NCBI GenBank assembly: GCA_034437075.1
Contig: DAOTVD010000126.1
Coordinates: forward strand, 1-58,067
Length of the DNA: 58,067 nucleotides
Reading direction: 5' to 3'
Source: Anaerolineae bacterium
Lineage (GTDB): Bacteria; Chloroflexota; Anaerolineae; Aggregatilineales; J027
Shown here: one piece after another, positions 30,256-48,514 of the stretch
Numbering within the stretch: position 1 is the stretch's first letter
Layout of the letters: the number at the start of each line of letters is the position of its first letter
Position numbers and translations under genes: made by a program
Notes under the pieces: model-generated
The model's database searches: none
Seen by the model: the letters and a program-made list of their open reading frames with translations, nothing else
What the model was told of the DNA's origin: nothing

Positions 30256-30280
30256 CGGACTCTGCATAAAGGTGCTGCCC

Positions 30281-31744: not shown

Positions 31745-31775
31745 CGCATGCAACTATTGATTATCGACATCGCTT

Positions 31776-31799
31776 GTAGGGGCGAGGCCCGCCTCGCCC
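31776..31799 (+). repeat. GTAG-family REP element
   Basis: GTAG followed by hairpin GGGCGAGGC-CC-GCCTCGCCC in the trpE-trpG spacer. Confidence 0.7.
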
Positions 31800-31833
31800 A
31801 AAATCACCATCGCGAATAAGGATTTTTTGAGCC

Positions 31834-32403
31834 ATGCAACTGCTCATCATCGACAATTACGACAGCTTTACCTATAACCTGGCGCAAGCCTTCGGCAAAC
31901 TGCGCGCCGATGTCGCCGTGCATCGCAACGATAAGATTACGCTAGAGGACATCGAGCGCCTAGCGCCCGAGCGCATCGTCATTTCGCCGGGGCCGGGCAC
32001 GCCGGACGACGGCGGCATCTCGCTAGATGTGTTGGCGCGTATCTCCAGCGGTACGCCGACCCTGGGCGTGTGCCTGGGGCATCAATGCATCGGCCAAGCC
32101 TTCGGCGGGCAGGTGGTGCGCGCGCCGCGCCTGATGCACGGCAAAACCTCGGAGGTGTATCACCAGGGACATCCCATTTTTCGGGGCGTGCCCAATCCAT
32201 TTATCGCCACGCGCTACCATAGTTTGATCGTGCAAGACCCCGTGCCGGAAGAACTCGACGTCATCGCGCAGACCGCCGAAGGGGAAATCATGGCTTTGCG
32301 CCATAAAACCTTGCCCATCATCGGTGTGCAGTTTCACCCCGAAAGCATCCTGACGGAATACGGCCCGCGCATCATGCAAAATTTCCTGGAAGGGCGGTAT
32401 TAA
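31834..32403 (+). CDS. trpG: Anthranilate synthase glutamine amidotransferase component II
   Basis: IIDNYDSFTYNL, SPGPG, GVCLGHQ and QFHPES. Confidence 0.96.
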   Translation: MQLLIIDNYDSFTYNLAQAFGKLRADVAVHRNDKITLEDIERLAPERIVISPGPGTPDDGGISLDVLARISSGTPTLGVCLGHQCIGQAFGGQVVRAPRLMHGKTSEVYHQGHPIFRGVPNPFIATRYHSLIVQDPVPEELDVIAQTAEGEIMALRHKTLPIIGVQFHPESILTEYGPRIMQNFLEGRY

Positions 32404-33426
32404 ATGATCGTCATTATGCAAGCGGACGCCACCGGCAAACAAGCCCTGGACGTGGTGACGCGCGTTAAGCAGTTGGGCTACGATGTGCACATCAGCGAAA
32501 GCGGCGCGCAAACCATCATCGGGATTGTGGATGGCCAGGCGCGCGTAGACCCCGAAAAAGTCGTCGCGCTGAAGTTGATCGCGGGTGTGGCGGACATCAT
32601 GCCCGGCTCGCATCCGTTTAAGCTGGCCAGCCGCGAATATCACCCCGAAGCCACGCGCGTGCGCTTGGGCGGCATCGACTTCGGCGGCGCGACCATCGGC
32701 ATTATCGCCGGGCCGTGTTCGGTGGAAAGCCGCGCGCAAATCCTGGAAAGCGCGCACGCGGTCAAGGAGGCGGGCGCGGTGGCCCTGCGGGGTGGCGCGT
32801 TTAAGCCGCGCACCTCGCCATTTTCGTTCCAGGGGATGGGCGAGGAAGGGCTGAAGCTACTGGCCGAAGCCCGCGAGCAAACCGGTTTGCCCGTCGTCAC
32901 CGAAGTGATGGACTCGAATCTGGTGCCGTTGGTCTGCGAATATGCCGATGTGTTGCAGGTGGGCGCGCGGAATATGCAAAACTACGCGCTGCTAAACGCG
33001 GTAGGCAGTTCCGGCCATCCGGTGTTGCTCAAGCGCGGGATGAGCAGCACGATTCAGGAATTGCTCATGGCCGCCGATTACATCCTCAGCCACCACAACC
33101 CCAACGTGATGCTCTGCGAGCGCGGCATCCGCACGTTCGAGACGGCCACGCGCAACACGTTTGACCTCAACGCGATTCCTGTGCTGAAAGCACAAACGCA
33201 CCTGCCCATCATCGCCGATCCCAGCCACGCGACGGGCAAATCGGAATATGTCGAAGCGGCATCGCTGGCGGCCATCGCGGCGGGCGCGGATGGGCTGATT
33301 ATTGAAGTACACCCCGACCCCGCCAATGCCATGTCGGACGGACGGCAAAGCCTGGCCCCGGAGGCGTTCGCGAAGCTAGTGCGCCGCGCGCAGCGCATCG
33401 CGGATGCCGTAGAAAGAGAGCTCTAG
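32404..33426 (+). CDS. aroF: DAHP synthase class I-beta with N-terminal regulatory domain
   Basis: [38 protein letters not shown] and EVHPDP. Confidence 0.95.
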
Positions 33427-33430
33427 CGCC

Positions 33431-34285
33431 ATGTGGCTTAAAGATTGTCATGTGCATATCGTGGGCCTGGGCCTGATGGGCGCTTCGTTGGCGCTGGCCC
33501 TGCGCGGCAAGGTCGCGCGCCGCTCGGGGAGTGACATCGACACGGCAGTAGTACACGAAGCCATAGCCGACGGCACCATTGACGCCAGCGGCGAACGCGA
33601 ACAGGCCGACATCGTGGTGCTCGCCGCGCCCGCCGATGCCAATCTGCGCCTGCTGGCAGAACTCGCGCTCAAGCCCGGCGCGCTGGTCATCGACCTGGGG
33701 GGCAGCAAAACCGCCATTTGTAATCTGATGGATACGTTACCCGAGCATATCACCGCCGTGGGCGGGCACCCCATGTGCGGTATCGCAGAAAACGGCTACC
33801 AGAACGCCTTCGCGACCCTCTACGCCGGGGCGCGTTTCATCCTGTGCGCCACCGTGCGCACGACCGACACCGCGCGCGGCCTGGCCGAGCAACTCGTCGC
33901 GGCCTGCGGGGCCATGCCGCTATGGATGGATCGCGCACGCCACGACCAAACCGCCGGGGCGATTAGCCATCTGCCGCACCTGGTCAGCTTCGCGCTGATG
34001 CGCCTGGCGATGGGCCTTTCGGAGCAAAATGGCGATGTCTTCGAGATGGCGGCGGGCGGTTTCGACGGCGCGACACGCTTGGCCCGAACCAACGAAGCCA
34101 TGATTAGCGGCATGTTCCTCACCAACGAGGCACAATTACGCGCATTAGTGGACGATTTACGCCGCCATTTGGACGATCTGACAGCATTGCTTGACGATCC
34201 GCCCGCCTTGCGCGCAGAATTAGAACGCATCGTCGCTGCCCGCCGCGCTTATACCGAGCAATATGGCGAGCGTATGATTACTTAA
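33431..34285 (+). CDS. tyrA: Prephenate/arogenate dehydrogenase
   Basis: IVGLGLMGASLA, DLGGSK, GGHPMCG, HDQTAGAISHLPH and GATRLA. Confidence 0.92.
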   Translation: MWLKDCHVHIVGLGLMGASLALALRGKVARRSGSDIDTAVVHEAIADGTIDASGEREQADIVVLAAPADANLRLLAELALKPGALVIDLGGSKTAICNLMDTLPEHITAVGGHPMCGIAENGYQNAFATLYAGARFILCATVRTTDTARGLAEQLVAACGAMPLWMDRARHDQTAGAISHLPHLVSFALMRLAMGLSEQNGDVFEMAAGGFDGATRLARTNEAMISGMFLTNEAQLRALVDDLRRHLDDLTALLDDPPALRAELERIVAARRAYTEQYGERMIT

Positions 34286-34306
34286 CCACGGAGCGAATGA
34301 ACGGCC

Positions 34307-35638
34307 ATGGCAACCTTAACCATCCGACCCGGAAACCCCCTGGCCGGGCACCTCAGCGTCCCCGGCGATAAGTCGATTTCGCATCGTGTGCTGATGTTGG
34401 GCGCGCTAGCGAATGGCGTCACCGAAGTGCGCGGCTGGCTGCCCGCCGGGGATACACGCGCCACGCTCAGCGCGGTGTGCAATATCGGCGCCACGGTGGA
34501 AAGACACGACGATACGACGCTTAGCGTCCATGGCGGCAATTTGCAAGCGCCCGACATCCCGCTGGATTTCGTCAACGCCGGTACGGGCATTCGCTTGATG
34601 GCAGGTGTCATGGCCGGGTTGCCCTTTGCCGCCACCCTGGACGGTAGCGCCCAACTCCGCCGCCGCCCCATGACGCGCGTGACCGACCCACTCCGGCAAA
34701 TGGGCGCGGCCATCTCCGACACGGATGGCAAAGCGCCGCTCCATGTCTCGCCCGCGCCCTTGCAGGGTATCCATTACACCTTGCCCATGCCCAGCGCGCA
34801 GGTCAAAAGCTGTATTTTGCTGGCGGGGCTGTTCGCAAATGGCCCGACATCGGTCACCGAACCCGGCCCTGGGCGCGACCATACCGAAAATATGCTGCGG
34901 GCGATGGGCGTAAAGCTCACCGTAGACGGCGCGACGATCACCGTGCAACCCGCCTTCCGCGTGGATCATACGGCGCACACGCTAACGCCCCTAGCCGAAC
35001 TGCAACCGTTTGATCTCACCGTGCCCGGCGATTTTTCTTCGGCGGCCTTTCTCATCATCGCGGGGGCGCTGGCCGCCGCCGCGCCGATCACGCTGACGGG
35101 CATAAACACCAACCCCCGCCGCACGGGGCTGCTGGATGTATTGGCCCGCATGGGCGCGACGGTCGAGCAGAGCAACCCGCGCGACGAAGGCGGCGAACCT
35201 GTCGCCGATTTGATCGTTGCGCAACATCAGCTACAGGGCACCACGGTCGGCGGGGATGAGGTCGTGCGCATGATTGACGAATTTCCCGCGCTGATGGTCG
35301 CCGCCACCCAAGCCCAGGGCGCAACCCACGTTCGCGAGGCCGAAGAACTGCGCGTCAAAGAGACTGACCGCATCGCGGTTATGGCCGACGAACTGCGCAA
35401 AATGGGCGCGACCATTGACGAACAAACAGACGGCTTCCGCGTGACGGGCCCGCAAGCCTTGCGCGGCGCGGTCGTGGACGCGCATGATGATCACCGCATT
35501 GGGATGAGCCTGGCAATTGCCGCGCTGCTGGCCGAAGGCGAAACGACCATACAAGATGCCGGCTGCATTCATGACTCATTCCCAGGTTTCGAAGACGCAT
35601 TAACGCAATTGGGAGTCGATTTAACATGGCAGAATTAA
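34307..35638 (+). CDS. aroA: EPSP synthase
   Basis: PGDKSISHR, NAGTGIR, SAQVKS, RDHTE, PGDFSSA, KETDR and DHRIGM. Confidence 0.98.
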   Translation: MATLTIRPGNPLAGHLSVPGDKSISHRVLMLGALANGVTEVRGWLPAGDTRATLSAVCNIGATVERHDDTTLSVHGGNLQAPDIPLDFVNAGTGIRLMAGVMAGLPFAATLDGSAQLRRRPMTRVTDPLRQMGAAISDTDGKAPLHVSPAPLQGIHYTLPMPSAQVKSCILLAGLFANGPTSVTEPGPGRDHTENMLRAMGVKLTVDGATITVQPAFRVDHTAHTLTPLAELQPFDLTVPGDFSSAAFLIIAGALAAAAPITLTGINTNPRRTGLLDVLARMGATVEQSNPRDEGGEPVADLIVAQHQLQGTTVGGDEVVRMIDEFPALMVAATQAQGATHVREAEELRVKETDRIAVMADELRKMGATIDEQTDGFRVTGPQALRGAVVDAHDDHRIGMSLAIAALLAEGETTIQDAGCIHDSFPGFEDALTQLGVDLTWQN

Positions 35639-36510
35639 ACAAAGTCGGGCTTATCGGTTGGCCCGCCGATTACAGCGTCTCGCCCGCGATGCATAACGCC
35701 GCGTTTGCTGACCTGGGCCTGGAAAATTGGCAGTACGAACTGCTGCCGACCCCGCCCAATGAACTCAAAGAGCGTTTGCTGCATCTGCGCGCGCAAGGCT
35801 ACATCGGCGCCAACGTGACCGTCCCCCACAAGCAGACGATTATCCCCTTGCTGGATGGCGCGGTGCTCTCGGCGCGCGGCGTGAACGCCGTCAATACGCT
35901 GATTATCGAAGGCGGCAAAATCGAGGGGCACAACACCGACGTATATGGCATCCGTGCCGACCTAGAAGCGCATGGCGTCGTCCTGAAAGACTTAAAAGCG
36001 CTCGTCCTGGGCGCGGGCGGCGCGGCCCATGCAGCGGTGCTGGCCCTAGCCAACGCGGGCGCGGATGTCACAGTGACGAACCGCCACACCCAACGCGCTT
36101 GGGATTTATATCGTAACATCCGGCGCGGTGTCTCTAGCCAATATCGCGTCAACGTGCAAGAGCGCACGGCGTTGGCGCGCATAGCCCCGAACATGGAATT
36201 GGTCATCAACTGCACGCCCGCCGGGATGTACCCCATTTATACGGATGTCTCGCCCTGGCCAGCCGACGTACCCATCCCCAGCGAGATGATGGTTTACGAC
36301 ATGGTCTATCGCCCGTTGGTGACGCGCTTCATGCAGCAAGCCCTGGATGCGGGCGCGACGGCGGTCGGCGGGTTGGGGATGTTGGTGCACCAAGGCGCGG
36401 CGGCCTTCCAACTATGGACGGGGCGCGAACCCTCGGTGGACATCATGCGCGCCGCCGCCGAAGCCGAAATCAAGCGCAGCGAAGAAAACGACAAGCTCGA
36501 CGCCTCGTAA
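35626..36510 (+). CDS. aroE: Shikimate dehydrogenase
   Basis: SVSPAMHN, GANVTVPHK, NAVNT, NTDVYG, GAGGAA and DMVYRP. Confidence 0.96.
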   Translation: MAELNKVGLIGWPADYSVSPAMHNAAFADLGLENWQYELLPTPPNELKERLLHLRAQGYIGANVTVPHKQTIIPLLDGAVLSARGVNAVNTLIIEGGKIEGHNTDVYGIRADLEAHGVVLKDLKALVLGAGGAAHAAVLALANAGADVTVTNRHTQRAWDLYRNIRRGVSSQYRVNVQERTALARIAPNMELVINCTPAGMYPIYTDVSPWPADVPIPSEMMVYDMVYRPLVTRFMQQALDAGATAVGGLGMLVHQGAAAFQLWTGREPSVDIMRAAAEAEIKRSEENDKLDAS

Positions 36511-36540
36511 AGTCAGCCAAAAGGAAGCCAAAAAACGCCT

Positions 36541-37719
36541 ATGTTACGCTATCTGACGGCAGGCGAAAGCCACGGCCCCGAACTCAACGCCATCTTAGAA
36601 GGTTTGCCCGCCGGGCTACCCCTGGCCCCCGATGACCTGAACGCCGACCTGGCCCGCCGCCAAAAGGGCTATGGCAGCGGGGGCCGTATGCAGATCGAGA
36701 AAGACGCGGTTCGCATCACCAGCGGCCTCATGCGCGGCCAGACCACCGGCGGCCCCCTGGCCATGACCGTCATCAACCGCGATTGGAAAAACTGGGCCGA
36801 AAAAGACATCCCGCCCCTGACGACCCCCCGGCCCGGCCATGCCGACCTCACCGGGGCCATTAAATATGGCTACGAAGATTTGCGCCTCTCGCTGGAACGG
36901 GCCAGCGCGCGCGAAACGACCACCCGCGTCGCGGTTGGCGCGGTCTGTAAAAAGTTTCTGGGTGAATTTGGCATCACGGTCGGCGGCTATGTGGCCGCGA
37001 TTGGCGGCGTGCATGCTCAGCTAGACCCCAGCATGCCCTATGCCGAACGCTATCGCCGCGCCGAGGAGGAATCCAGCGTGCGCTGCCCCGACCCCGACGC
37101 CACCGAACGCATCGAAGCGGCCATTCGCCAGGCCAAGGTCGATAAAGATACGCTCGGCGGGGTCATCGAGGTCTTTGTATTGGGTTTGCCGCCCGGCCTG
37201 GGCAGCCATGTGCATTACGACCGCCGCCTGACCGGGCAATTACTCGCGGCGGTGGGCAGCGTGCAATCCATGAAAGGCGCGGAAATCGGCCCGGCTTTTG
37301 CCAACGCGGACGGACGCGGCACGCAAGTCCATGACGAGATCACACGTGCGCCGGATGGCAGCCTGCACCGCCGCACGAATCGCGCGGGTGGGCTAGAAGG
37401 CGGCATCACCACCGGCGAACCGCTGATCGTGCGCGCGGCCATGAAGCCCATCAGCACCACACTCACCCCCCTGGCTACGGTTGATTTGGCTAGCGGCGAA
37501 CCTGGCCAGACCGTCTACGAACGCAGCGACTTTTGCGCCACACCGCGCGCGGTGGTCGTCATTGAAGCCGTAGTCGCCTTTGTGATGGCCAATGCCTTGC
37601 TAGAAAAACTCGGCGGTGATAGCCTGAAAGAAATGCGCCCCCGCTTCGAGGCACTCCGCCGGGGTCACCCCGATGACCTGCCCATGTGGAACGAACCCTG
37701 GCGCTTTGGCTACGAATAA
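36541..37719 (+). CDS. aroC: Chorismate synthase
   Basis: TAGESHG, RPGHAD, RASARET, GGLEGGIT and MKPIST. Confidence 0.98.
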   Translation: MLRYLTAGESHGPELNAILEGLPAGLPLAPDDLNADLARRQKGYGSGGRMQIEKDAVRITSGLMRGQTTGGPLAMTVINRDWKNWAEKDIPPLTTPRPGHADLTGAIKYGYEDLRLSLERASARETTTRVAVGAVCKKFLGEFGITVGGYVAAIGGVHAQLDPSMPYAERYRRAEEESSVRCPDPDATERIEAAIRQAKVDKDTLGGVIEVFVLGLPPGLGSHVHYDRRLTGQLLAAVGSVQSMKGAEIGPAFANADGRGTQVHDEITRAPDGSLHRRTNRAGGLEGGITTGEPLIVRAAMKPISTTLTPLATVDLASGEPGQTVYERSDFCATPRAVVVIEAVVAFVMANALLEKLGGDSLKEMRPRFEALRRGHPDDLPMWNEPWRFGYE

Positions 37720-37769
37720 TGCGAAGATCGACAAGACTTAACGAACATATCCTATAGAAAGTTAAACTT

Positions 37770-39353
37770 ATGCCAGCAGAATATAACTTGATCATCACCG
37801 GCTTTATGGGGGTGGGTAAAACCACCGTGGGCCAGCATATCGCCGCGCAATTAGGCCGCCCCTTTGTGGATACCGACGACATCATCAGCGAACGCCTGGG
37901 CAAAAACGTGCCGGACATCTTCGCCGCCTATGGCGAACCGTTTTTTCGCGCGCTGGAAGCCAGCATCGCCCGCGAATTTGCCACGCCGCAAGGGCTGGTT
38001 ATCGCTACGGGGGGCGGCACCCTGACCAATTACGAGAATATGCGCGCTATCAGCGGCCCGGGTAACGTCATCTTTTGCCTGAATGCGCCGCTGGATGATA
38101 TTTTCGCGCGCTTAGAAAAAGACACGCGCCGCCGCCCGATGATCGACCAACAAGGCGACCCGCGCGCCGCCGCCCAAGCCCTACTCGCCCAACGCCAGCC
38201 ACTCTACGCGCGCATCCGCCGCCACATCGACACCGGAGGCCGCCGCGTGGAGGACATCGCCGCCGAAATCATCGAAATATATAACGCCGAAGTCGCGCGC
38301 AATGCCATTCGCCTGCCCGTACATACCCCCACCAACTACTACCACATCTACATCGAGAATGGCATCATGGGCCAAATGCCCGAATTGCTAGCAGCCCATG
38401 CCCTGGACGGTCGGCGCACGCTCGTGGTGACCAATCTGACGCTAGCGCCGCTCTATGGTGAGCAGATGGCCGCCGCGCTGCCCCATGCCCAACTCATCAC
38501 CATCCCAGATGGCGAGCAGTACAAGAGCATTCCCATTGCCGAGCAACTGTATAAAGATTTTGCCGCCGCTGGGCTAGACCGCAACGGCGTGGTCATCGCG
38601 CTGGGGGGCGGCGTGGTGGGGGATACGGTGGGTTATGCGGCGGCGACGTATATGCGCGGTGTGGATGTGGTGCAAGTGCCGACCAGCTTACTGGCCATGG
38701 TCGATTCCTCCGTGGGGGGCAAGGTGGCCGTGGATATGCCCGAGGGCAAGAATCTTGTCGGTGCCTTCAAACAGCCCGAACTGGTCGTCGTTGATCCTGA
38801 TGTGCTGGGTACGCTGCCGCCCGCCGAAGTCCGCGCGGGCTTGGCGGAGGCCATCAAGCATGGATTGCTGGCCGACCCTGGGCTGTTGGATGAAATCGAA
38901 GGTATCGCGGTGGGGGATGCGGGCTTGCTGCGGCGGGCTGTGCAAGTCAAGGTAGATGTCGTAGAGCGCGACCCCTACGAAAGCGGCGAACGCGCGCACC
39001 TGAACCTGGGCCACACCTTCGCACATGCCATCGAGCGGCTGAGCAATTTTCAGTGGCGGCACGGCGAAGCGGTCGGCGTAGGGTTGGTGGCCGCCGCGCG
39101 GCTCTCGATGCATTTGGGCCGCCTGGCGGAAGACCAAGCCGAATACATCGAAAAGATTGTCGAAAAGGTGGGGCTACCCACGCGCATCAACGGCTTTGAC
39201 CCCGGCCATATGTGGGAGGCCATGCAGCTAGACAAAAAATGGCGCGATGGCGAATCGCATTTCGTGCTGCTAGATGGCATCGGCGCGCCCTGCCTGGTGC
39301 GCGGTGTCCCGCGTGAAGCCGTGACGACCATCCTAGAGGACATGCGGTCGTGA
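37770..39353 (+). CDS. aroB: Bifunctional shikimate kinase / 3-dehydroquinate synthase (AroK-AroB fusion)
   Basis: N-terminal GFMGVGKTTVG, FVDTD, ATGGG and RRP; C-terminal GGGVVGD, PTSLLAMVDSSVGGK, EAIKHG, LNLGHTFAHA and HGEAV. Confidence 0.96.
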   Translation: MPAEYNLIITGFMGVGKTTVGQHIAAQLGRPFVDTDDIISERLGKNVPDIFAAYGEPFFRALEASIAREFATPQGLVIATGGGTLTNYENMRAISGPGNVIFCLNAPLDDIFARLEKDTRRRPMIDQQGDPRAAAQALLAQRQPLYARIRRHIDTGGRRVEDIAAEIIEIYNAEVARNAIRLPVHTPTNYYHIYIENGIMGQMPELLAAHALDGRRTLVVTNLTLAPLYGEQMAAALPHAQLITIPDGEQYKSIPIAEQLYKDFAAAGLDRNGVVIALGGGVVGDTVGYAAATYMRGVDVVQVPTSLLAMVDSSVGGKVAVDMPEGKNLVGAFKQPELVVVDPDVLGTLPPAEVRAGLAEAIKHGLLADPGLLDEIEGIAVGDAGLLRRAVQVKVDVVERDPYESGERAHLNLGHTFAHAIERLSNFQWRHGEAVGVGLVAAARLSMHLGRLAEDQAEYIEKIVEKVGLPTRINGFDPGHMWEAMQLDKKWRDGESHFVLLDGIGAPCLVRGVPREAVTTILEDMRS

Positions 39354-40006
39354 ATTGCCCCATCTGTGCCGCGCCGCTAGACGCCTCACACACCAACACA
39401 CAGCGCGGCCTGGCCATTTGCGATACCTGCGACACCATATTCAGTCTGCCAGACGCCCCGCCGCACCCCGCGCCTGACCTCGGCCCGCGCCACGACTTGC
39501 AAGCCGCGCCGCAGGATGTCACGATCAGGACGCGCTGGTGGAGTCCTAATTTATGGCCTGTGCCCGCCCTTAGCGCCCTGTGGGCCGTGAGTGCGGTCAT
39601 CTGGCTGGGGAGTGGCCTGGCGAGTGGTGATCTGTTCATCACGCTTTCCGGCATACCCCATGCGACCATCGCGCTGGGGTTGGCATACTATAGCGCGACG
39701 CTCTATCGCAACACGACAACCACGTATTTTTCGCCGGACGGCCTGCGCATGACCCACGGCCCGCTGCCCCTGGCGCGCAACGTCCATGCCCGGCAAGCGT
39801 CTATTCAGCGGGTTTATGCCCGGCAGCGCTACCACCGCCGCAGTGATGAATTTAGCTATGGGGTGTACATCCGCTTGGCCAGCGGGCGCGACGAGGCCCT
39901 GCTGACTGGCCTACCCGAACCCGAAGCCGCACTGTATCTAGTGGACACCTTGCGCGCGCTGTGGGAAAATCCCGAAAAGGTACCCGAAAAGGTAAATGGA
40001 GATTAA
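39350..40006 (+). CDS. Hypothetical zinc-ribbon membrane protein
   Basis: CPIC...CDTC at the N-terminus and two TM segments; GTG start overlaps the aroB stop. Confidence 0.75.
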   Translation: MNCPICAAPLDASHTNTQRGLAICDTCDTIFSLPDAPPHPAPDLGPRHDLQAAPQDVTIRTRWWSPNLWPVPALSALWAVSAVIWLGSGLASGDLFITLSGIPHATIALGLAYYSATLYRNTTTTYFSPDGLRMTHGPLPLARNVHARQASIQRVYARQRYHRRSDEFSYGVYIRLASGRDEALLTGLPEPEAALYLVDTLRALWENPEKVPEKVNGD

Positions 40007-40009
40007 CCC

Positions 40010-40453
40010 ATGCATATCCTGATCTTGCACGGCCCGAATCTCAATCTGTTGGGCACGCGCGAACCAGAAATCTACGGCACAGCCACCCTAGCCGACATCG
40101 ACGACGCGCTCGAAAGCCTGGCCGCCGAACACGGCGCGACGTTGCGCGCGTTGCACTCCAACCATGAGGGCGTCCTGATTGACGCGCTGCACGAGGCGCG
40201 CGGTTGGGCGAACGGCGTGCTCATTAATCCGGGCGGGCTAACGCATACCTCGGTCGCGCTGCGCGATGCCGTCGCGGCGGTGGCTGTGCCCACCGTGGAA
40301 TGCCACCTGTCGAACATCGCCGCGCGCGAAGCCTTCCGCGCGCATTCATACCTCACGGGGGTTTGCCTGGGCGCGGTCAGCGGCTTCGGCCCGCAGAGCT
40401 ATACGCTTGGCTTACTGGCCCTCATCCAGCACCTGAAGCGGAGTCTTCCATGA
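40010..40453 (+). CDS. aroQ: Type II 3-dehydroquinate dehydratase
   Basis: [32 protein letters not shown] and ECHLSN. Confidence 0.98.
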
Positions 40454-40467
40454 ACGTGTAATCAGAC

Positions 40468-40740
40468 ATGGTCAAGAAAAAGAAGCTGTATCAAAAACTC
40501 GTCAACAATCAAAAAAATGTGCGCTTCCCTGATTTTTTGCGGGTAATTGAAGCGTTCGGTTTTGAACAAGATCGCGTCAAAGGCAGCCATCGTGTATATA
40601 AACATCCTACTCTTCAAGATGAGTTTCTTGTGCTGCAACCAAGCAAAAGTGGCGAGGCCAAACCTTACCAGATTAAACAGTTCTTGCTATTGGTCGAAAC
40701 CTATGATCTAAGGATGGATGACAATGACGACGATGACTAA
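40468..40740 (+). CDS. hicA: HicA family toxin (type II TA)
   Basis: RFPDFLRVIEAFGF...KGSHRVYKHP...KPYQIKQ. Confidence 0.92.
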   Translation: MVKKKKLYQKLVNNQKNVRFPDFLRVIEAFGFEQDRVKGSHRVYKHPTLQDEFLVLQPSKSGEAKPYQIKQFLLLVETYDLRMDDNDDDD

Positions 40741-40954
40741 TGATTATCACATCAACATCTTTTTTAGCGTCGAAGACGAAGCCTATATTGCTGATATACC
40801 TGACCTTAAGTTTTGCTCCGCCCACGGCGAAACTCCTGAAGAAGCCTTGGCCGAGGTATTGATTGCCAAACAAGCCTGGTTAGAAGCTGCACATGAGAAT
40901 GGGCGCCCCATTCCAAAACCACGCTATCGCCCTGCAATTTATCAGGCATATTAA
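40733..40954 (+). CDS. hicB: HicB family antitoxin, short form with no DNA-binding domain
   Basis: YIADIPDLKFCSAHGETPEEALAE...AWLEAAHENGRPIPKP; start set at ATG 40733 overlapping the hicA stop. Confidence 0.93.
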   Translation: MTNDYHINIFFSVEDEAYIADIPDLKFCSAHGETPEEALAEVLIAKQAWLEAAHENGRPIPKPRYRPAIYQAY

Positions 40955-40960
40955 CTTCAC

Positions 40961-41092
40961 TGACGTTACGCACGCGCTTGGCATCCAAGGGGTTAAAACC
41001 CCTTGTTAACTTATAGCGACCTTTCATGGCCTCTTAACAAGGGGCTGAAGCCCCTTGAAGAAAGCCGATTTTGATAAAACTGCGTAACGTCA
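40961..41092. repeat. 132-bp MITE/BIME-like element: 12-bp terminal inverted repeats around two inverted REP palindromes
   Basis: TGACGTTACGCA (40961-40972) / TGCGTAACGTCA (41081-41092); CAAGGGGTTAAAACCCCTTG (40986-41005) and CAAGGGGCTGAAGCCCCTTG (41038-41057). Confidence 0.75.
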
Positions 41093-41129
41093 CAACGTCA
41101 TAAGGATTACTCTAGCAATAGTATGGCCC

Positions 41130-43547
41130 TCATCCAGCACCTGAAGCGGAGTCTTGCGTAGCCGATGTATTATCTTCTTCAGGCTTGACATGCCGCCGCC
41201 GGAAACCTAGCTTGCCTTCGGCATGATTGACCACGACTTTAACCGTATCGCCCGCTGAAAACCGTTCATCCAACAGCGCGGAGGAAAGCGGACGCAGCAA
41301 TAAGCGCTCGATAGCTCGGCGCAACGGTCGCGCGCCTTCGGTCACCGACGCGCCTTCGCGCAACAGCATCGCGCGGGCCTCCGCGCTGAGGTCGATGCGC
41401 ATATCTTGCGCGTCTAAGCGCTCGGTCAATTCGGCCAGTTGCGCATCCAAGATGCGATCCAAGGCGATGTCATCCAAGGGGCGGAAGGTGACGACCTCAT
41501 CAATACGATTGAGAAATTCCGGGCGGAAGGTGCGCTTGAGTTCCTCGCTATAATCCGGCAACTGGTCGGGCTGGGCCATAAAACCGAAGCCCTTACCGAC
41601 TGAGTCCGAACCAATATTGCTGGTCATGATCCAAACCGCGTGGCGCCCATCCACGGTCGCGCCGAGCGCATCGGTCAGGCGGCCTTCGTCGAAGACTTGC
41701 AAGAACAGGTCGAAGACTTCTACGGCGGCTTTTTCGATTTCATCCAGCAAGACCACCGAATAGGGCCGGCGGCGCAAGGCTTCGGTCAGTTGGCCGCCGC
41801 GTTCGGTGCCTTTGTAGCCGGGCGGAGCGCCGATGAGCCGCGCGGCGGTATGCTCATCATAAAATTCGGACATATCCAGGCGGATCATGGCATCATAATC
41901 GCCAAACATGAATTCCGCGATGGCCTGCGCCAGGGCTGTTTTGCCCACGCCACTCGGCCCGATGAACAAAAAGACCCCGGTCGGGCGCTGAGGATTACCC
42001 AACCCGGCACGCTGGGTTTTGATGGCATCCACCACCGTATCGACGGCATGCTCTTGGCCAAAGACCCGCGCCTTAATGTGCTCATCCATGCGGGCCACGC
42101 GCGCGCGCTCATCGGCGGTGAGGTCGGCCAAGGGAATGCCCGTCCATTCACTGAGCACTTCGCGCACATGCTGCGGCCCTACGGGGCGCGTTTCGCCATC
42201 CAGCGATTCATCCGGCGATTGAGATTGGATCACGACGCGCGCGCAGGCTTCGTCTAGCAGATCGAGCGCTTTGTCGGGCAGGCGACGGTCAGGCAAGTAA
42301 CGATCCGACAAAAGCACGGCGGCCTGGCGCGCTTCGGGGTGAATGTGGACATCGTGGTGTTCTTCGTAGCGGGCGTACACATTCTCGATAATGGCCAGCG
42401 TTTGGGTCACGGTCGGCTCGCCAATATCAATCGTGCGAAAGCGGCGGTCAAGCGCGGGGTCTTTAGCCACGGCTTTGCGATATTCTTCGAAGGTCGTGGC
42501 ACCAATGCATGAGATTTCGCCCCGGGCTAGCGCTGGTTTCAGGATATTGGCTGCGTCCAGATTGCTATCAATGGTATCGCCCGCGCCGACAATGGTGTGA
42601 ATCTCGTCAATGAACAGGATCACCCCCGGCGACGACTTCGCCTCGTCCACAATGCCGACTAGGCGCTCCTCAAATTGGCCGCGCAGGCTGGTGCCGGCCA
42701 CTAATGTCCCAATTTCCACTTGAATAATGCGCGACTCGCGCAAGGGCCGGGGCGCGGTGCCCTGGGCAATCTGCCAAGCCAAGCCTTCGACCACGGCGGT
42801 TTTGCCGACCCCCGCATCGCCGAGCAGCAGCGGATTGTTCTTTTTGCTGCGTGTCAGCGTCCGCGCGACGGCGCGAATCTCTTTTTCGCGCCCGATGGCC
42901 GCGTGCAGTTTGTTCAGGCGCGCTTGCTCGGTCAGGTCACGCCCGTATTTATCCAGCAAGGGGGTGGGCATGTTGGTGGGCATACTCGCTTCGAGGTCAT
43001 CATCCGAGAAATCGAAGGTTGGGGCGTAATCGTCATCAAAATAATCGAAGACATCATCGTCAAAATCTTCGATCTCCAGCGCATCATCCAACTGCAAATG
43101 CTCGGTCAAGTATTCGACCCAATACGCGACATCAACGCCCATCTGGCGGATTTTGCGCACGGCGACCCCTTCGCCTTCTTGCAACAAGCTGAGCAATAAT
43201 TGCTCTTGTGTCACCTCGGTTTCGCCCATGTCGTCGGCCAGATACACCGCCTGAGTCAGCACCCGATGCGCGCGGGGTGTAAAGGGCAAATATTCAGAGA
43301 GCACATCATCGCCCATGCCTACATCGCGCCGGATGGCATTGCGCACTTCGCGCGTATCCAGCCCGGACTCTAGCAAGATGCGGCTCGTAATTCCCCCTTT
43401 GATGCGGGTCAAACCATTAAAGAGATGCTCGGTACCGATGTAATTATGGCGCAAGCGCGATGCTTCGCCTTCGGCGTGTTGCAACAGATGGCCCACCAGA
43501 GTGCGGATTTCGGCATCGGTCATTTCCATTGGGGATTCGGATGACAT
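41130..43547 (-). CDS. ClpA/ClpC-family AAA+ ATPase
   Basis: Two Clp N repeats; GDAGVGKT / LFIDEIH; DRRLPDKALDLLDEA; GPSGVGKT / LLDEIEK; FRPEFLNRIDE; GARPLRR. Confidence 0.96.
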   Translation of the reverse strand: MSSESPMEMTDAEIRTLVGHLLQHAEGEASRLRHNYIGTEHLFNGLTRIKGGITSRILLESGLDTREVRNAIRRDVGMGDDVLSEYLPFTPRAHRVLTQAVYLADDMGETEVTQEQLLLSLLQEGEGVAVRKIRQMGVDVAYWVEYLTEHLQLDDALEIEDFDDDVFDYFDDDYAPTFDFSDDDLEASMPTNMPTPLLDKYGRDLTEQARLNKLHAAIGREKEIRAVARTLTRSKKNNPLLLGDAGVGKTAVVEGLAWQIAQGTAPRPLRESRIIQVEIGTLVAGTSLRGQFEERLVGIVDEAKSSPGVILFIDEIHTIVGAGDTIDSNLDAANILKPALARGEISCIGATTFEEYRKAVAKDPALDRRFRTIDIGEPTVTQTLAIIENVYARYEEHHDVHIHPEARQAAVLLSDRYLPDRRLPDKALDLLDEACARVVIQSQSPDESLDGETRPVGPQHVREVLSEWTGIPLADLTADERARVARMDEHIKARVFGQEHAVDTVVDAIKTQRAGLGNPQRPTGVFLFIGPSGVGKTALAQAIAEFMFGDYDAMIRLDMSEFYDEHTAARLIGAPPGYKGTERGGQLTEALRRRPYSVVLLDEIEKAAVEVFDLFLQVFDEGRLTDALGATVDGRHAVWIMTSNIGSDSVGKGFGFMAQPDQLPDYSEELKRTFRPEFLNRIDEVVTFRPLDDIALDRILDAQLAELTERLDAQDMRIDLSAEARAMLLREGASVTEGARPLRRAIERLLLRPLSSALLDERFSAGDTVKVVVNHAEGKLGFRRRHVKPEEDNTSATQDSASGAG

Positions 43548-43746
43548 GGTTCCCTCACTGTTTTGCTGTCTAACATTGTGCGGCGGGGGTAGGTGTAGGG
43601 CGACACCGCACCCTGTCAGTATACCGCAGCGCCCCGGCTTGTAAACCGGAAGACATTGACGTTACCGAAAGTAGGCGGAAAACGGTATACTAGCTGTAGA
43701 ATCCGGACAAGAACAACAACCAGCGCGGTAACAAGAGACTCGCCTT

Positions 43747-46221
43747 ATGGCTACAGACCCTTTGCTTAATCGAAAACTCGGTGATTACACCATCATTGAT
43801 CTGCTCGGTAAAGGCGGCATGGCCCGCGTGTATCGAGGGTATGACGAGAACCTAGATCGTTACGCCGCCGTCAAGGTCATCAGCGGTGACTTTGCCACAG
43901 CGGACGAAGCCGAATACAACGAACGGTTCTTGAAAGAAGCACGTGCCATCGCCCGCCTAAACCATCCGAATATTGTGGGGGTGTATCAATTCGGCAATGC
44001 CGAGGGCGTATATTATATGGCGATGCACTTTTTGGATGGCGAAGACCTACGCATCATCTTGCGCCGCTATGCCAAAGCGGGCCAAAAAATGCCCTACGCC
44101 GACATCTTGCGCATGGGGCGCGACATGGCCGATGCGCTCGATTATGCCCATACCGAAGGCGTGGTGCATCGCGACATTAAGCCATCGAACATCATGATTC
44201 TGAACACCAGCGGGCGCGCCGTGCTGACGGATTTTGGTCTGGCGCTCAGCGTGCCCGAAGGCACCATGGGCGATACCTTTGGCACCGCGCATTATATCGC
44301 CCCCGAGCAGGCGATTTCCTCGGCGAATGCCGTCCCTCAAAGTGACTTGTATTCGTTCGGGGTGGTGTTGTATGAGGCGCTGGCCGGGCAAGTGCCCTTC
44401 GATGAACCCTCCGCTATGAGCGTGGCCCTGAAGCACCTCAACGATAGCCCCCCGCCGCCCAGCGTCTTCAACCCCGCCTTGCCCGAAACCGCCGAAGAAG
44501 TGCTGATGCGCGCCTTGGCCAAAGACCCGGCAGAACGCTACCCCACAGGCAACGACTTACTCGACGCGCTGGAAGAAGCCCTGGGCGAAACCGCCCCCAC
44601 CAACCAACGCATCAGCACCGCCAGCAATATCGTGAGCGCAGCGCCGCCGGCAAAAGGCAACGACTGGGAATCCTATCTGAAGTCTGTGGAAGAATCCAAC
44701 GTGACGCCGCCCAGCCCCGTGCCCGATACGCCCACGGATATGCGCCCCAGGCCAGGCGAGCAAACCGAACCCTGGTCGCCCTCCATGATGGATCGCCCGT
44801 CGCAGATCGAAGCCATGGCGCGTCAGCAACAACGTAACAATATGCTGGTGCTTTTAACGCTGGTGGTGGTGCTCATTCTAGTCGGGATCATTGCCGCCGC
44901 CGTCCTGTTTTCGGGGGGTGAAGAAAATGGCGAAGACAATTTACAACAGGCGCTGGTCAGCGCGCGCCAAACCGAAAATGCCGAGAATCGCGCTGCCTCG
45001 CAAACGGCAGTCGCCCTGTTTACCGACACCCCCACGCCGACCGAAACTTTTACGCCCACGAACACCAACACACCCACCGACATACCATCGCCCACCAACA
45101 CACCCACCGACACGCCATCACCCAGCAATACACCCACCGACACGCCATCACCCACCGACACGCCATCACCCACCGACACGCCCACCGAGCTAGCGGCAAT
45201 TGCGCCCACGGCACTGCCCCCCCAGATTCGCCTGGTCTATACCAGCGACTGGATGCTCATCAGCAACCTGACAGAAGACCCGGTCGATTTACAAGCCGTG
45301 CGTTTTCAACAAGTGGGCAGTGACTTCGACCGCGAATTTGATTTTGTCAGCGATTTTGAATCCTTGAGCCGCGCCGAATTACCGCCCGATAGCTGCTTTC
45401 AGTTGGTGCGGTCGCCCAGCTTTCTCACCGAGCCCGATCTCGTGGCGCTGTGTAGCCCCGGTGATCGCATCGCCTGGGTATCGCCAGGGCGCTCGGCGTT
45501 GTTCTGGACGAACTCGGAACAAGACGGCAATTTTGTGGTGGCGCTGGGCCGCCGCACGCTCACCGAATGCTCGCTTATGCTGAATCCGCAGGGCTTCGGC
45601 ACCTGTGAATTTACCACCGAACGGCCACTCATTCTGGATAGTGGCGCCGCGCCTCCGCCAGCGGAAAGCGCCAACCGCGCCACCGACACGCCCGAACCCG
45701 ATGAGACATCCACCGAACGCGCCGCGACGGCCACTCCGACTGAAGAAGCTACCCAGGCCGCTACAGCGACCGCCACGCGCACCCCAGCCCCCACGCAGGC
45801 GGTTACCGAGGAACCATCCCCCACAGCGGAAATCGACGAGAATGCCGAGATCGAAATCGTTTATGACAATGAACGGCTGTATATCCGCAATATCTCGGGC
45901 GTGCGGCAAAACATCACGCCTTTGCGTTTCGAACAAGGGGAAACGATTGTCTTTGGCGCTGCCGAATGGCGCGATACGGGCGTGGGCTCGACCAGTCTAT
46001 TCCCGGCTGGTGCTTGTTATCTGCTGGTGACCTCGCCCCGGGCCGCGTTGCCCGTGCCCAGCGAATGTGACCGCAGCCTGGGGTGGATCCAACGCAGCAC
46101 CACGAGCCACTTCTGGATCGCGCGTAACGATGAGGTTACCACTTTTGAAGTCATTTACGACAATGACCAGATTGCAGAATGCGACATCGCAGACGGGCGT
46201 TGCACCTTTGTGTTAGAATAA
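43747..46221 (+). CDS. Transmembrane Hanks-type Ser/Thr protein kinase
   Basis: GKGGMARVY, AVK, HRDIKPSN, DFG and APE; a TM helix, P/T-rich linkers and two related Cys-containing extracellular domains. Confidence 0.96.
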   Translation: MATDPLLNRKLGDYTIIDLLGKGGMARVYRGYDENLDRYAAVKVISGDFATADEAEYNERFLKEARAIARLNHPNIVGVYQFGNAEGVYYMAMHFLDGEDLRIILRRYAKAGQKMPYADILRMGRDMADALDYAHTEGVVHRDIKPSNIMILNTSGRAVLTDFGLALSVPEGTMGDTFGTAHYIAPEQAISSANAVPQSDLYSFGVVLYEALAGQVPFDEPSAMSVALKHLNDSPPPPSVFNPALPETAEEVLMRALAKDPAERYPTGNDLLDALEEALGETAPTNQRISTASNIVSAAPPAKGNDWESYLKSVEESNVTPPSPVPDTPTDMRPRPGEQTEPWSPSMMDRPSQIEAMARQQQRNNMLVLLTLVVVLILVGIIAAAVLFSGGEENGEDNLQQALVSARQTENAENRAASQTAVALFTDTPTPTETFTPTNTNTPTDIPSPTNTPTDTPSPSNTPTDTPSPTDTPSPTDTPTELAAIAPTALPPQIRLVYTSDWMLISNLTEDPVDLQAVRFQQVGSDFDREFDFVSDFESLSRAELPPDSCFQLVRSPSFLTEPDLVALCSPGDRIAWVSPGRSALFWTNSEQDGNFVVALGRRTLTECSLMLNPQGFGTCEFTTERPLILDSGAAPPPAESANRATDTPEPDETSTERAATATPTEEATQAATATATRTPAPTQAVTEEPSPTAEIDENAEIEIVYDNERLYIRNISGVRQNITPLRFEQGETIVFGAAEWRDTGVGSTSLFPAGACYLLVTSPRAALPVPSECDRSLGWIQRSTTSHFWIARNDEVTTFEVIYDNDQIAECDIADGRCTFVLE
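45025..45189 (+). repeat. Intragenic tandem repeats encoding a T/P/S linker
   Basis: Repeated CCCACCGACACGCCATCA-type 18-mers (PTDTPS) and CCCACCAACACA-type units. Confidence 0.85.
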
Positions 46222-46239
46222 AGCGAAATAACAAGCATA

Positions 46240-47835
46240 TTGAAGCTAGTGAACGATCAAACCATCTTGGAACAGCGAACGCGCGCGCTACAGGCTATGG
46301 TCCGGGTTTCGCAACTTATCGACAGCATCGACCTGGACTATGTACTGGGTGAGATGCTCAAGATCATTACCGAAACCGTCGAGGCCTATAAAGGCAGCAT
46401 CTTTCTGCTGGATGAGAAGCTGCAACCTGTCCAACGCTTTTTGACCCAGCGTGCCCTCCCCCCCGAAATGACCCGCCAGGTCGCGCACGATGTGTTGGAT
46501 AAGGGCCTAGCGGGTTGGTGTGTGCGCCATGGACAGGGCGCTATCGTCCCCGACATCAGCCAGGATGGCCGCTGGCATATCTTCCCGGATGATCATCAGC
46601 AGGATGTCCGGTCGGCGATGTGTGTGCTCTTGCAACACGAAGGGCGGACGCTGGGCGTACTGACTTTGGTGAATCCGAACGTGGCCCATTTTCATGACGA
46701 ACACTTGCAAATCGTACAGGCCATCGCGAACCAGGCCGGGCTAGCCATTCGCAACGCCCAACTCATCGATCACCTGGAAAGCCAACAGCACGAAATGCGC
46801 CTGATGCTCGAAACAGTCAGCGATGCCCTGCTAGCCTTGGACGCCCAACTGAATGTGCGCCTCATCAACCGGCGTGCGCGCGAGTTGCTGGGTGTCGCGC
46901 CGGGCGCGGATGTGGCCGGCCAACCCTTGGCCCAATTGGCGGGGGCCTCGGTGTATACCCAAGTCGTCAGTCGCCTACAAGACCCCGCCGCCATCGAACA
47001 AGCCGCGAATATCATCGTGCGCGACGAGCCCAACCAGAAAGATTATGCGCTGCAAATCGCCAGGCTGGGCCAGCCCGACCAGCAAAGTGGGCCGGGGTAT
47101 GTGACCGTATTGCACGATGTCACCACCATCCGAGATGTGGATCGCCTGAAGACGCAAATGTTGCAAATGCTCAGCCACAACCTCAAAAACCCGATGAACA
47201 TCGTCTGGGGTTATGTCGATCTGCTGCGGATTGATAGCGAAGATGGCAAATCGACAGACCCGCGTTTTGTGGATAGCATCTTGCGGGCGCTGCAACGCAT
47301 GGAAATCTTGATCGATGAAACGCTGGCCGCCTCGCGGCACATCACCGAAGATTTTGCCATGCTTCAGCGCGATGTCTTCGCCCCCACCAAGACCATTTCC
47401 GACTTGTTGTATGACATGAACAGCCTGGCGGAAGCCAAGTCGCTGACCATTGTGCGCGATATTCAGCCCGATATGGCCCCGTTTTTGGCCTGGGCTTTCC
47501 AGATGCGCGAAGCCATGGCCAATCTGTTGGGCAACGCCATCAAATACACCCCGGAGGGCGGCACCCTGACGGTGCAGGCCCGGCGCGACGACGAGCGCTT
47601 TTCGTTCTCGGTGCAGGATACGGGCATCGGCATCCCTGGCCACCTGCAAGCTCAGCTATTCACCGAATATTACCGTGCCGAGCGCCCCGCGCTCAGAGAA
47701 ATCCCCGGTACTGGGCTGGGGCTGAGCCTCGTGAAAAAGATCGTCCAAGCCCACGAGGGCGACGTTTGGTTCCAGAGTAAAGAACACGACGGCAGTACGT
47801 TTGGGCTGTGGGTTCCTGTCGTACCGCTTGAGTAA
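46240..47835 (+). CDS. Cytoplasmic GAF-PAS-HisKA-HATPase sensor kinase with an atypical H-box
   Basis: GAF (KGLAGWCVRHGQGAIVPDISQDGRW), PAS, SHNLKNP H-box, NLLGNAIKYT, DTGIGIP and GTGLGL; TTG start is uncertain. Confidence 0.92.
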   Translation: MKLVNDQTILEQRTRALQAMVRVSQLIDSIDLDYVLGEMLKIITETVEAYKGSIFLLDEKLQPVQRFLTQRALPPEMTRQVAHDVLDKGLAGWCVRHGQGAIVPDISQDGRWHIFPDDHQQDVRSAMCVLLQHEGRTLGVLTLVNPNVAHFHDEHLQIVQAIANQAGLAIRNAQLIDHLESQQHEMRLMLETVSDALLALDAQLNVRLINRRARELLGVAPGADVAGQPLAQLAGASVYTQVVSRLQDPAAIEQAANIIVRDEPNQKDYALQIARLGQPDQQSGPGYVTVLHDVTTIRDVDRLKTQMLQMLSHNLKNPMNIVWGYVDLLRIDSEDGKSTDPRFVDSILRALQRMEILIDETLAASRHITEDFAMLQRDVFAPTKTISDLLYDMNSLAEAKSLTIVRDIQPDMAPFLAWAFQMREAMANLLGNAIKYTPEGGTLTVQARRDDERFSFSVQDTGIGIPGHLQAQLFTEYYRAERPALREIPGTGLGLSLVKKIVQAHEGDVWFQSKEHDGSTFGLWVPVVPLE

Positions 47836-47924
47836 CCCACCATCATGCTGCTGGATACCAATATGAACGACATACAACACAAAATCAGTTCCTATCGCAC
47901 CGCTTGAGTAACCCACCATGATGC
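47812..47924 (+). repeat. 37-bp imperfect direct repeat duplicating the kinase-GNAT junction
   Basis: GTTCCT(G/A)TCG(T/C)ACCGCTTGAGTAACCCACCAT(C/G)ATGC at 47812-47848 and 47888-47924. Confidence 0.9.
47845..47907 (+). pseudogene. 20-aa mini-ORF MLLDTNMNDIQHKISSYRTA; possible PIN/VapC N-terminal remnant
   Basis: Lies inside the junction duplication. LLDTN matches the first PIN-domain motif, but that is only five residues. Confidence 0.3.
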
Positions 47925-48514
47925 CCTATCAGGTACGCCCATTGCGCCGCGAGGACATCCCACGCTTAACGGAGATCAACCCCACATTTACCGCGCAGAC
48001 CGTTTTGCGCATCTCCCGCACGGGGGCGTCGCCCTTCCAAGGTTGGCACCTGGAAGAAATCCCTCGCCAGACCCCCTTTCATAAGGGCCGCGCTTACGAC
48101 TTCGATGCCCAAGAACGCGCCCACATCAACCGCCGCCATGCCCAAGCAATTCACCTGCAAGAGGTGGTCGAAGACCCGGCCAAGGGTAAACTCGTCGGCA
48201 TTCTGGATGTTGAATACGAAAGCTGGCGCCACACCGCCTGGATATGGAATTTAATGCTCGATGTCAACACCCGGGGGCGCGGCCTGGGGCGTTTGCTGTT
48301 TCAACATACCCTAGCGTGGAGTCGCCAGCATGGCTTGCGCGCCATCCTGCTGGAAACCCAGAGCAACAACACCCCCGCCTGCCGTTTTTATGCCCATTTA
48401 GGGTTTCAACTGGTCGGGGTGCATGATATATTCTACACAAATGATGATCGACAACGCGAGGAGGTCGCGCTATTTTGGGCCTATACACTCACCCCATCCG
48501 ACGCTACGCGCTGA
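47918..48514 (+). CDS. GNAT acetyltransferase resembling the streptothricin acetyltransferase (Sat) group
   Basis: RGRGLG acetyl-CoA motif; LETQSNNTPACRFYAHLGF...E.ALFW. Confidence 0.85.
   Translation: MMPYQVRPLRREDIPRLTEINPTFTAQTVLRISRTGASPFQGWHLEEIPRQTPFHKGRAYDFDAQERAHINRRHAQAIHLQEVVEDPAKGKLVGILDVEYESWRHTAWIWNLMLDVNTRGRGLGRLLFQHTLAWSRQHGLRAILLETQSNNTPACRFYAHLGFQLVGVHDIFYTNDDRQREEVALFWAYTLTPSDATR

Follow-up and report, generated by a model that had tools for sequence, protein, structure and literature searches.

How can a small piece of DNA come to lie between two bacterial genes, inside a short duplication of their junction, and leave both genes usable? The question is raised three times in contig DAOTVD010000126.1 of an Anaerolineae bacterium (assembly GCA_034437075.1; Chloroflexota, Aggregatilineales), of which a stretch of 58,067 nt, hereafter the window, was analysed. 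Direct duplications are present at the trpE/trpG, aroQ/clp, and histidine kinase/GNAT junctions, exactly where a first-pass annotation made from the sequence alone had placed them, and the flanking genes are confirmed by Pfam. That annotation ascribed all three to a single sequence-flexible route for micro-cassettes made of toxin–antitoxin (TA) genes or repetitive extragenic palindromic (REP) sequences. [quoted passage not shown]

The first process is best seen in the genome as a whole, a metagenome-assembled genome (MAG) of 4.49 Mb in 473 contigs that is 95% complete. The genome-wide scan proposed in the annotation was run as a search for local direct repeats, plus a second, ungapped scan requiring at least 30/37 matches, and it bears out the idea of a recurrent, non-disruptive insertion that duplicates junctions. 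At least 22 units were found in which a unique duplication of 37–39 bp surrounds a unique insert of 30–39 bp (mode 34–35 nt): 21 short units, the kinase/GNAT one included, and one unit on contig C106 that contains a nested MITE (miniature inverted-repeat transposable element). The period from start to start of the two copies is 67–76 bp, mostly 70–74, with a sharp peak at 69–74 bp, against a background of 0–1 loci per 3-bp bin. Each duplication and each insert occurs at a single locus in the genome, and neither the targets nor the inserts are related to one another. The copies are identical in 9 units and show 1–6 differences over 37 positions in the others, mismatches or indels being present in 12. 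The recurrent cargo is thus not TA or REP, as had been thought, but unique DNA of 30–39 bp within a duplication whose length is fixed at about 37 bp. A cargo of the size of a spacer and a duplication of such constant length point to the Cas1–Cas2 of the genome rather than to homology-facilitated uptake or an HUH enzyme associated with REPs.

The units are strikingly confined to gene borders. Gene interiors, defined as positions lying deeper than 45 nt within predicted genes, make up 81.5% of the genome but hold only 1/22 units (P = 7e-15), and a stop or start codon lies within at least 10 of the duplications. For example, two convergent genes both have their stops in the duplication on C238, and a stop/start junction lies in the one on C286. 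Two loci carry later events. At C106:6369-6654, an exact 37-bp duplication surrounds a 33-nt insert that was invaded at a TAA by a MITE of ~176 bp with GGCTTTTCC termini, the TAA being duplicated. At C360:4697-4895, two units overlap: the older has a 32-nt duplication and a period of 70 once the younger is removed, and the younger, placed 16 nt further in, has a 39-nt duplication and a 35-nt insert. Hence one spot was used twice, and the nested MITE and the nested second unit together indicate that the units are real and of different ages. The inserts have a GC content of 51.7%, compared with 57.3% for the genome. There is a weak and symmetrical bias in the flanks, with G at −1 and −2 (11/22 each) and C right after the duplication (14/22, P = 7e-4), which may mark the two points of attack. 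Enrichment of hairpins at the targets was not significant relative to location-matched controls (P = 0.11).

The kinase/GNAT junction (37 + 39) is an ordinary member of this class. The gene for a GAF-PAS histidine kinase (46240–47835, plus strand; Pfam HATPase_c, GAF, HisKA, and PAS) has its stop (47833–47835) inside the first 37-nt copy (47812–47848, plus), which contains the kinase end, the stop, and a pseudo-start. A unique, spacer-sized insert of 39 nt follows (47849–47887), and then the second 37-nt copy (47888–47924, plus) with a pseudo kinase end and the functional start, at 47918, of the GNAT acetyltransferase gene (47918–48514, plus; Pfam Acetyltransf_1). The copies are identical at 34/37 positions. 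In genus g3 this junction is 80–92 nt shorter, so the longer form is a derived insertion. The insert has no second copy in the genome and no match in phages, in IMG/VR, or in 382 genomes of the order, and a metagenome scan with the kinase end returned nothing. What had been taken for a VapC-like stub is a chimeric frame of 20 codons whose ATG comes from the duplicated GNAT start. The sole five residues of this frame that resemble PIN proteins, LLDTN, are treated here as a chance resemblance.

The annotation stated that no recombinase is encoded, which holds within the window, but the genome encodes a module formed by a reverse transcriptase (RT; RVT_1), Cas1, an RVT_3/RNase H-like protein, and Cas2. 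The module spans two contigs that abut within it (C201:4760-6658 and C204:842-1504). Cas1 scores 300 bits on C201 and is cut off by the contig end after residue 297, Cas2 scores 87–90 bits on C204, and RT lies upstream. RT and Cas1 are separate genes, and the RNase H-like gene found between cas1 and cas2 may serve the capture of spacers from cDNA. An exact-protein look-up of Cas2 gave no record. The closest homologues of this Cas1, with 55–74% identity in five relatives, adjoin 13 CRISPR arrays; the repeats are 37 nt long in 13/13 of them and the spacers are of 33–41 nt. G124, the closest relative, has this gene order with three arrays flanking it and csm genes after it, and the positions of these arrays are occupied by ordinary genes in the genome studied here. 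The gene order, kept in G124 (L015 8544-12352), has ahead of it an open reading frame (ORF) of ~320 aa without a Pfam match. The lengths of the duplication and of the insert both match the output of the resident Cas1 clade, which is the signature of off-target spacer integration, and on these grounds we regard Cas1–Cas2 as the likely author of the 37-bp units.

In the mechanism that we propose, Cas1–Cas2 would hold a spacer-sized fragment, possibly a cDNA made by the RT, and the two 3′ ends of the fragment would each attack one strand of ordinary DNA, at points separated by about 37 bp. By gap repair, these 37 bp would then be copied on each side of the insert. With a duplication of 37 bp, a compact junction formed by a stop, a ribosome-binding site, and a start would survive on both sides, and selection would then spare only the insertions at gene borders.

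The trpE/trpG junction resembles these units in part. The gene trpE (anthranilate synthase component I; 30131–31744, plus; Pfam Chorismate_bind and Anth_synt_I_N) ends with a TAA (31742–31744) inside a 36-nt copy of the trpE-stop/trpG-start region, delimited by gapped local alignment (31734–31769, plus). This copy is followed by an insert of 49 nt (31770–31818, plus) whose sequence includes the REP hairpin GTAGGGGCGAGGCCCGCCTCGCCC at about 31776–31799, and by a 37-nt copy (31819–31855, plus) that contains the functional ribosome-binding site and the ATG (31834) of trpG (glutamine amidotransferase; 31834–32403, plus; Pfam GATase). The 23-nt core of this duplication that the annotation had described is present, but the duplication is longer: an ungapped comparison gives 25/32 identities, and the repeat extends to 36/37 nt once one indel of 1 nt is allowed. 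Its local alignment score ranks 3 among about 580 pairs of adjacent windows over the 58 kb. The trpE–trpG spacer is of 89 nt here versus about 3–31 nt in at least 17 relatives, and the longer form is therefore a derived insertion. A mini-ORF of 23 codons (31748–31819, plus) uses the duplicated trpG ATG as its start, and 14 nt separate its end from the true trpG start. It links the stop of trpE to the start of trpG, a position from which it may act as a relay for translational coupling. The copies show 4 differences in the duplicated trpG codons, all of them synonymous (P = 0.0014 under random changes). Because a neutral copy would decay faster than the silent sites of a live gene, the upstream copy most likely evolved as a real trpG start in another lineage. 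The case is probably that of an older unit in which homologous recombination with a diverged allele later exchanged the left copy, and of all the steps in our account it is the least certain. Membership of this case in the 37-bp class seems to us evenly balanced. The REP is multi-copy in the genome, and among the three cases only this one contains it.

The aroQ/clp junction differs from both. The gene aroQ (type II dehydroquinase; 40010–40453, plus; Pfam DHquinase_II) and a clp-family AAA+ chaperone gene (ClpB/ClpC-like; 41130–43547, minus; Pfam AAA_2, ClpB_D2-small, and Clp_N) are associated with two exact copies of 32 nt. The first (40416–40447, plus) is C-terminal coding sequence of aroQ, and the second (41124–41155, plus) includes the clp stop (41130–41132, minus), with the ancestral aroQ stop, a TAG, at 41159–41161. 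The copies are identical (32/32) and 676 nt apart, and in 4.5 Mb chance alone would not be expected to produce an exact 32-mer that recurs within 3 kb. With a repeat of 32 bp and a cargo of 676 nt, this case lies outside the 37-bp ruler. The repeats enclose only hicA, hicB, and a MITE, and a recombinase gene is absent between them. The predicted toxin gene hicA (40468–40740, plus; 90 aa; Pfam HicA_toxin, 41 bits) begins 14 nt past the aroQ stop. The predicted antitoxin gene hicB (40718–40954, plus; about 73–78 aa) overlaps it by 23 nt and lacks a DNA-binding domain; its match with HicB_lk_antitox is borderline (26.5 bits for a cut-off of 27). Judged by domains and gene order, the pair has the architecture of a type II HicAB system, and the cassette leaves no space for a promoter of its own. 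Collapsing the 32-bp repeat restores an aroQ that ends in ...SLA* and overlaps clp tail to tail by ~32 nt. At present aroQ ends in ...SLP*, its last codon and stop being derived from the cargo, so that the statement that both neighbours stay intact is nearly, though not strictly, true. In G004, aroQ and clp are ~720 nt nearer each other, tail to tail, which identifies the longer form as a derived insertion. Compact junctions are thus found in relatives for all three cases. In genus g3 (L022–L024: G007, G010, and G002), the aroQ–clp interval contains one or two extra genes, which code for a secreted protein of ~410 aa and for one further ORF (about 155–315 aa) per genome, and this makes the junction a recurrent insertion hotspot within the family.

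The MITE in this interval (40958–41095) is secondary. Its terminal inverted repeat (TIR) is ACTGACGTTACGCA, two hairpins lie inside it, and 5 bp of its target were probably duplicated (ACTTC/ACGTC); it belongs to a family of ~140 bp with 14-bp TIRs, about 15–20 genomic copies at 88–94% identity, and no ORF. Target duplications of 5 bp are seen in the copies on C403 and C413. The elements beside hicAB that the annotation had called REPs are the internal GC hairpins of this MITE. An attC-like or integron reading of the same hairpins was dropped, since they belong to a multi-copy MITE. Because the MITE is a later arrival, the original cargo measured about 533 nt and comprised 20 nt, then hicAB, then about 26 nt. 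No close donor of hicAB was found; the best identity is 63%, so the ends of the cassette are not definable by comparison. In other copies of this MITE (C108 and C432), other MITE families are nested in the centre of the element.

The case belongs to a class of hicAB cassettes, spread across phyla, that have flanking direct repeats of variable length, often copies of the ends of host genes. Among 80 loci with hicA homologues from many phyla (identity ≤63%), the 68 with full flanks were analysed, and hicAB is bracketed by direct repeats (score ≥20, 21–206 bp) in 20/68, compared with 7/248 shifted controls, that is, about 29% of the loci against about 3% (2.8%) of the controls (Fisher P = 1e-9). 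The bracketed cargo is of 499–1004 bp, mostly 500–700, and the stop codon of a flanking ORF (≥60 codons) lies inside the repeat in at least 9/20 of these loci. The cassettes of L205 and L207 are 88% identical and yet lie at unrelated sites with different repeats. Copies of the flanking repeats in other genomes diverge by 0–10%. A ruler enzyme and a transposon are both disfavoured by the variable length of the repeats and by cassette ends that are not conserved. These repeats do support a sequence-flexible route for TA cassettes, but for the aroQ/clp case only. The route would most likely be one of recombination, such as one crossover with a small DNA circle bearing hicAB and a copy of the target, or an insertion at a staggered break. 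A repeat–cargo–repeat arrangement would otherwise be lost by recombination between the repeats, and would be kept here since the loss of hicAB would kill the cell (addiction); the MITE next to hicB would be a later insertion. Elsewhere in the genome, one gene for a predicted multi-pass membrane protein of 306 aa lies between the copies of a 124-bp repeat, which differ by 5 mismatches and hold the 3′ end of a lyase-like gene (C101:1762-3144), and a diverged repeat of ~105 bp (the 5′ end of a gene) surrounds ORFs of 183 and 66 aa (C38:1171-2490). With such gene-sized cargo, the duplication route may not be confined to TA genes.

Several other explanations must be weighed. The annotation's proposal, that a single sequence-flexible route (a REP-associated HUH enzyme or homology-facilitated uptake) put TA or REP micro-cassettes in all three junctions, accounts for three cases within 16 kb with gene ends preserved in all, for the REP at trpE/trpG and the hairpins beside hicAB, and for the purely synonymous divergence at trpE/trpG, which implies the input of a related allele. 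It could also invoke one HUH candidate, a weak Y1_Tnp match (36.8 bits, C223:8274-8603), which is the sole one in the genome; it sits where a contig ends, and the sequence available around it shows no REP. The kinase/GNAT unit, however, has neither REP nor TA genes, the hairpins at aroQ/clp are part of a MITE that made a target duplication of its own, and REP or TA cargo is present in 0/21 short units, the sole repeat-element cargo being the MITE nested in the C106 unit. The geometry is also of two kinds, fixed at 37 bp in one and variable from 21 to 206 bp in the other. An element mobilised by REP/RAYT requires a REP at each insertion and a Y1 gene flanked by REPs, and this was not the arrangement found. 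To our knowledge, HUH/RAYT transposition is not known to duplicate its targets. The three cases have at least two unrelated origins, an outcome that the annotation itself had set against a single mechanism, and we consider such a mechanism, which the tally of cargo over the genome has largely refuted, very improbable. For the aroQ/clp case alone, the 32-bp repeats might be the attL/attR cores of an integrase-borne element that was deleted down to the addictive hicAB. Integrative elements commonly target the 3′ ends of genes and duplicate 15–200 bp. The aroQ–clp interval is variable among relatives, and the 0–10% divergence of repeat copies elsewhere is what element-borne copies show. Entry mediated by mobile genetic elements and followed by streamlining has been proposed by Belot et al. 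2026 (PMC13617665). Yet at least 20 independent loci hold just hicAB and some tens of nucleotides while the useless second repeat remains. An erosion that thorough should have deleted the second copy as well, and no remnant of an integrase lies between the repeats at aroQ/clp. This origin is in our judgement rather unlikely.

For the 37-bp units, the main competitor to Cas1–Cas2 is some other process, such as repair and end-joining or an unrecognised integrase, with the CRISPR geometry being a coincidence. It would fit the lack of an array and of an effector in the assembly, the lack of any protospacer found, and the relatives that have the same Cas1 module without scars. It fits poorly with a duplication of 37 and an insert of 33–39 that match the lengths of the resident Cas1 clade (13/13 arrays), and with the restriction of the units to this genome among those sampled. 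Moreover, we know of no other enzyme whose inserts, unrelated to one another and about 35 bp long, come with a duplication fixed at about 37 bp. We hold this alternative to be unlikely. That the units are artefacts of assembly is suggested by the fragmentation of the MAG into 473 contigs, the relatives free of units being far better assembled. But 12 units have 1–6 mismatches or indels between their copies, one contains a nested MITE with a TAA duplication and another a nested second event, the same unit is present on two overlapping contigs, and the units shun coding interiors, an information that no assembler has. Such an origin is hardly credible.

Other results weigh against the two-process account itself. 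No CRISPR array came to light in the assembly among clusters of local repeats, at the ends of contigs, through BLAST with the repeats of relatives, or through a pattern search; a repeat of canonical type was found neither in the assembly nor beside the module, and a RAMP effector was not found in the assembly either. CRISPR arrays often fail to assemble. As a consequence, the 37-nt ruler is taken from relatives and not from an array of this genome. Exact duplications are of 38–39 nt more often than a strict 37-nt ruler with chance extension predicts. The inserts have no match in phages, in IMG/VR (6 inserts), in metagenome contigs (1 insert), or in the 382 genomes of the order, where the sole match is the REP of trpE/trpG. 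The middle of the trpE/trpG unit, with 49 nt, exceeds the observed range of spacers (33–44 nt). Relatives with an orthologous module lack units: when 2.0 Mb of three of them (800 kb of G124, 800 kb of G015, and 400 kb of G035) were scanned with the same pipeline, 0 units were found where the rate of this genome predicts about 10 (P = 4e-5). The units are therefore specific to this genome and not general to the order. G015 has the module, no array within 10 kb, and no units, which shows that neither possession of the module nor a missing adjacent array is sufficient for units to arise. As for the hicAB route, neither a circular intermediate nor an empty allele was seen, nor a close donor; the ends of the cassettes are not conserved, and some of the repeats that flank hicAB in other genomes may be dispersed repeats instead of target duplications.

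How do the two processes compare with known systems? RT-associated Cas1 modules of type III CRISPR-Cas are reported to capture spacers from RNA (Silas et al. 2016). A preprint on structure deals with such modules (10.1101/2020.10.18.344481). The present module resembles them in having an RT next to Cas1 and Cas2 and, in relatives, in lying by arrays with 37-nt repeats and by csm genes; a 37-nt ruler is typical of RT-associated type III adaptation modules. It differs by the separate RT and Cas1 genes and by the RVT_3/RNase H-like gene between cas1 and cas2. In E. coli, the type I-E Cas1–Cas2 integrates spacers off-target and creates neo-CRISPR units (Nivala, Shipman and Church 2018, as cited in 10.1101/148544). 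The two sets of units share a duplication of ordinary DNA with the length of a repeat, an unrelated insert with the length of a spacer, and many unrelated sites. Here, in contrast, the genome is a wild one with about 5 units/Mb, the ruler is of 37 nt, the units are confined to gene borders, and the role of the enzyme is inferred. The set of 37-bp units would be a natural variant of a phenomenon known from the laboratory. It is mainly in engineered E. coli that off-array spacer integration has been demonstrated. If it also explains the units of this genome, which lie alongside an apparently array-less RT-Cas1-Cas2, CRISPR integrases can supply genomes with small insertions on a standing basis. 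The units, more than 20 in number and differing in age, would then reveal a selection that confines insertions to gene borders, and would offer natural target sites for biochemistry. For annotation, it would mean that at junctions a short "toxin stub" or the duplicated start of a gene can be a scar of the spacer type and not a decayed gene.

The integration mechanism of TA modules is called unknown in reviews (PMC7167474; PMC13617665), and the excess of duplications around hicAB (about 29% versus about 3%) provides a testable clue to the entry of such modules into chromosomes. Two reported cases come close to the one at aroQ/clp. In Microcystis aeruginosa PCC 7806 a ParDE-like pair is "fenced" by repeats of 152 bp (PMC7935541), and in Photorhabdus ParE/RelE 26 is associated with a duplicated 24-bp palindrome (PMC13617665). 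They share with it two genes, no mobility gene, a direct duplication, and a position just after a host gene. They are, however, anecdotes from other TA families, whereas here a single hicAB family with repeats of variable length was quantified across phyla. Campbell-type (attL/attR) integration is similar in its repeats at gene 3′ ends and its functional neighbours, and different in that here there is no integrase and the cargo is of ~0.5 kb. Relative to REP/REPIN–RAYT systems and MITEs, the REP at trpE/trpG and the MITE at aroQ/clp are passengers or late arrivals, not the agents of the 32–37-bp duplications. A wider reading joins both processes: an RT-Cas1-Cas2 module that has lost its arrays and effector would be still active, scattering spacer-sized DNA, possibly cDNA, over the chromosome (about 5 surviving sites/Mb), rewriting gene junctions, uncoupling genes that overlap or are coupled, and seeding potential arrays, and promoterless hicAB would be spreading across phyla through target duplications of 20–200 bp, this being the missing mechanism of TA integration. 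We put this combined reading forward as tentative, and doubt that all of it holds.

A few minor observations remain. The REP family of the trpE/trpG insert (GTAGGGGCGAGGC..GCCTCGCCC; 31776–31799 in the window, also on C79, C145, C288, and others) occurs as singlets and as inverted doublets, in a REPIN-like manner, and no fewer than 29 further genomes from the order have near-identical copies. A 510-aa neighbour gene that seemed to be shared near units proved to be an artefact of the 1.5-kb windows used. Other long local repeats of the genome, considered as possible cargo units, are mostly repeats of coding domains or a tandem duplication of Flp pilin, and the alignment match of window 26001 is a coding repeat only. 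Coding repeats of Thr/Pro-rich sequence with periods of 18/30 bp are also found at 45021–45188 of the window, inside a Ser/Thr kinase gene (43747–46221).

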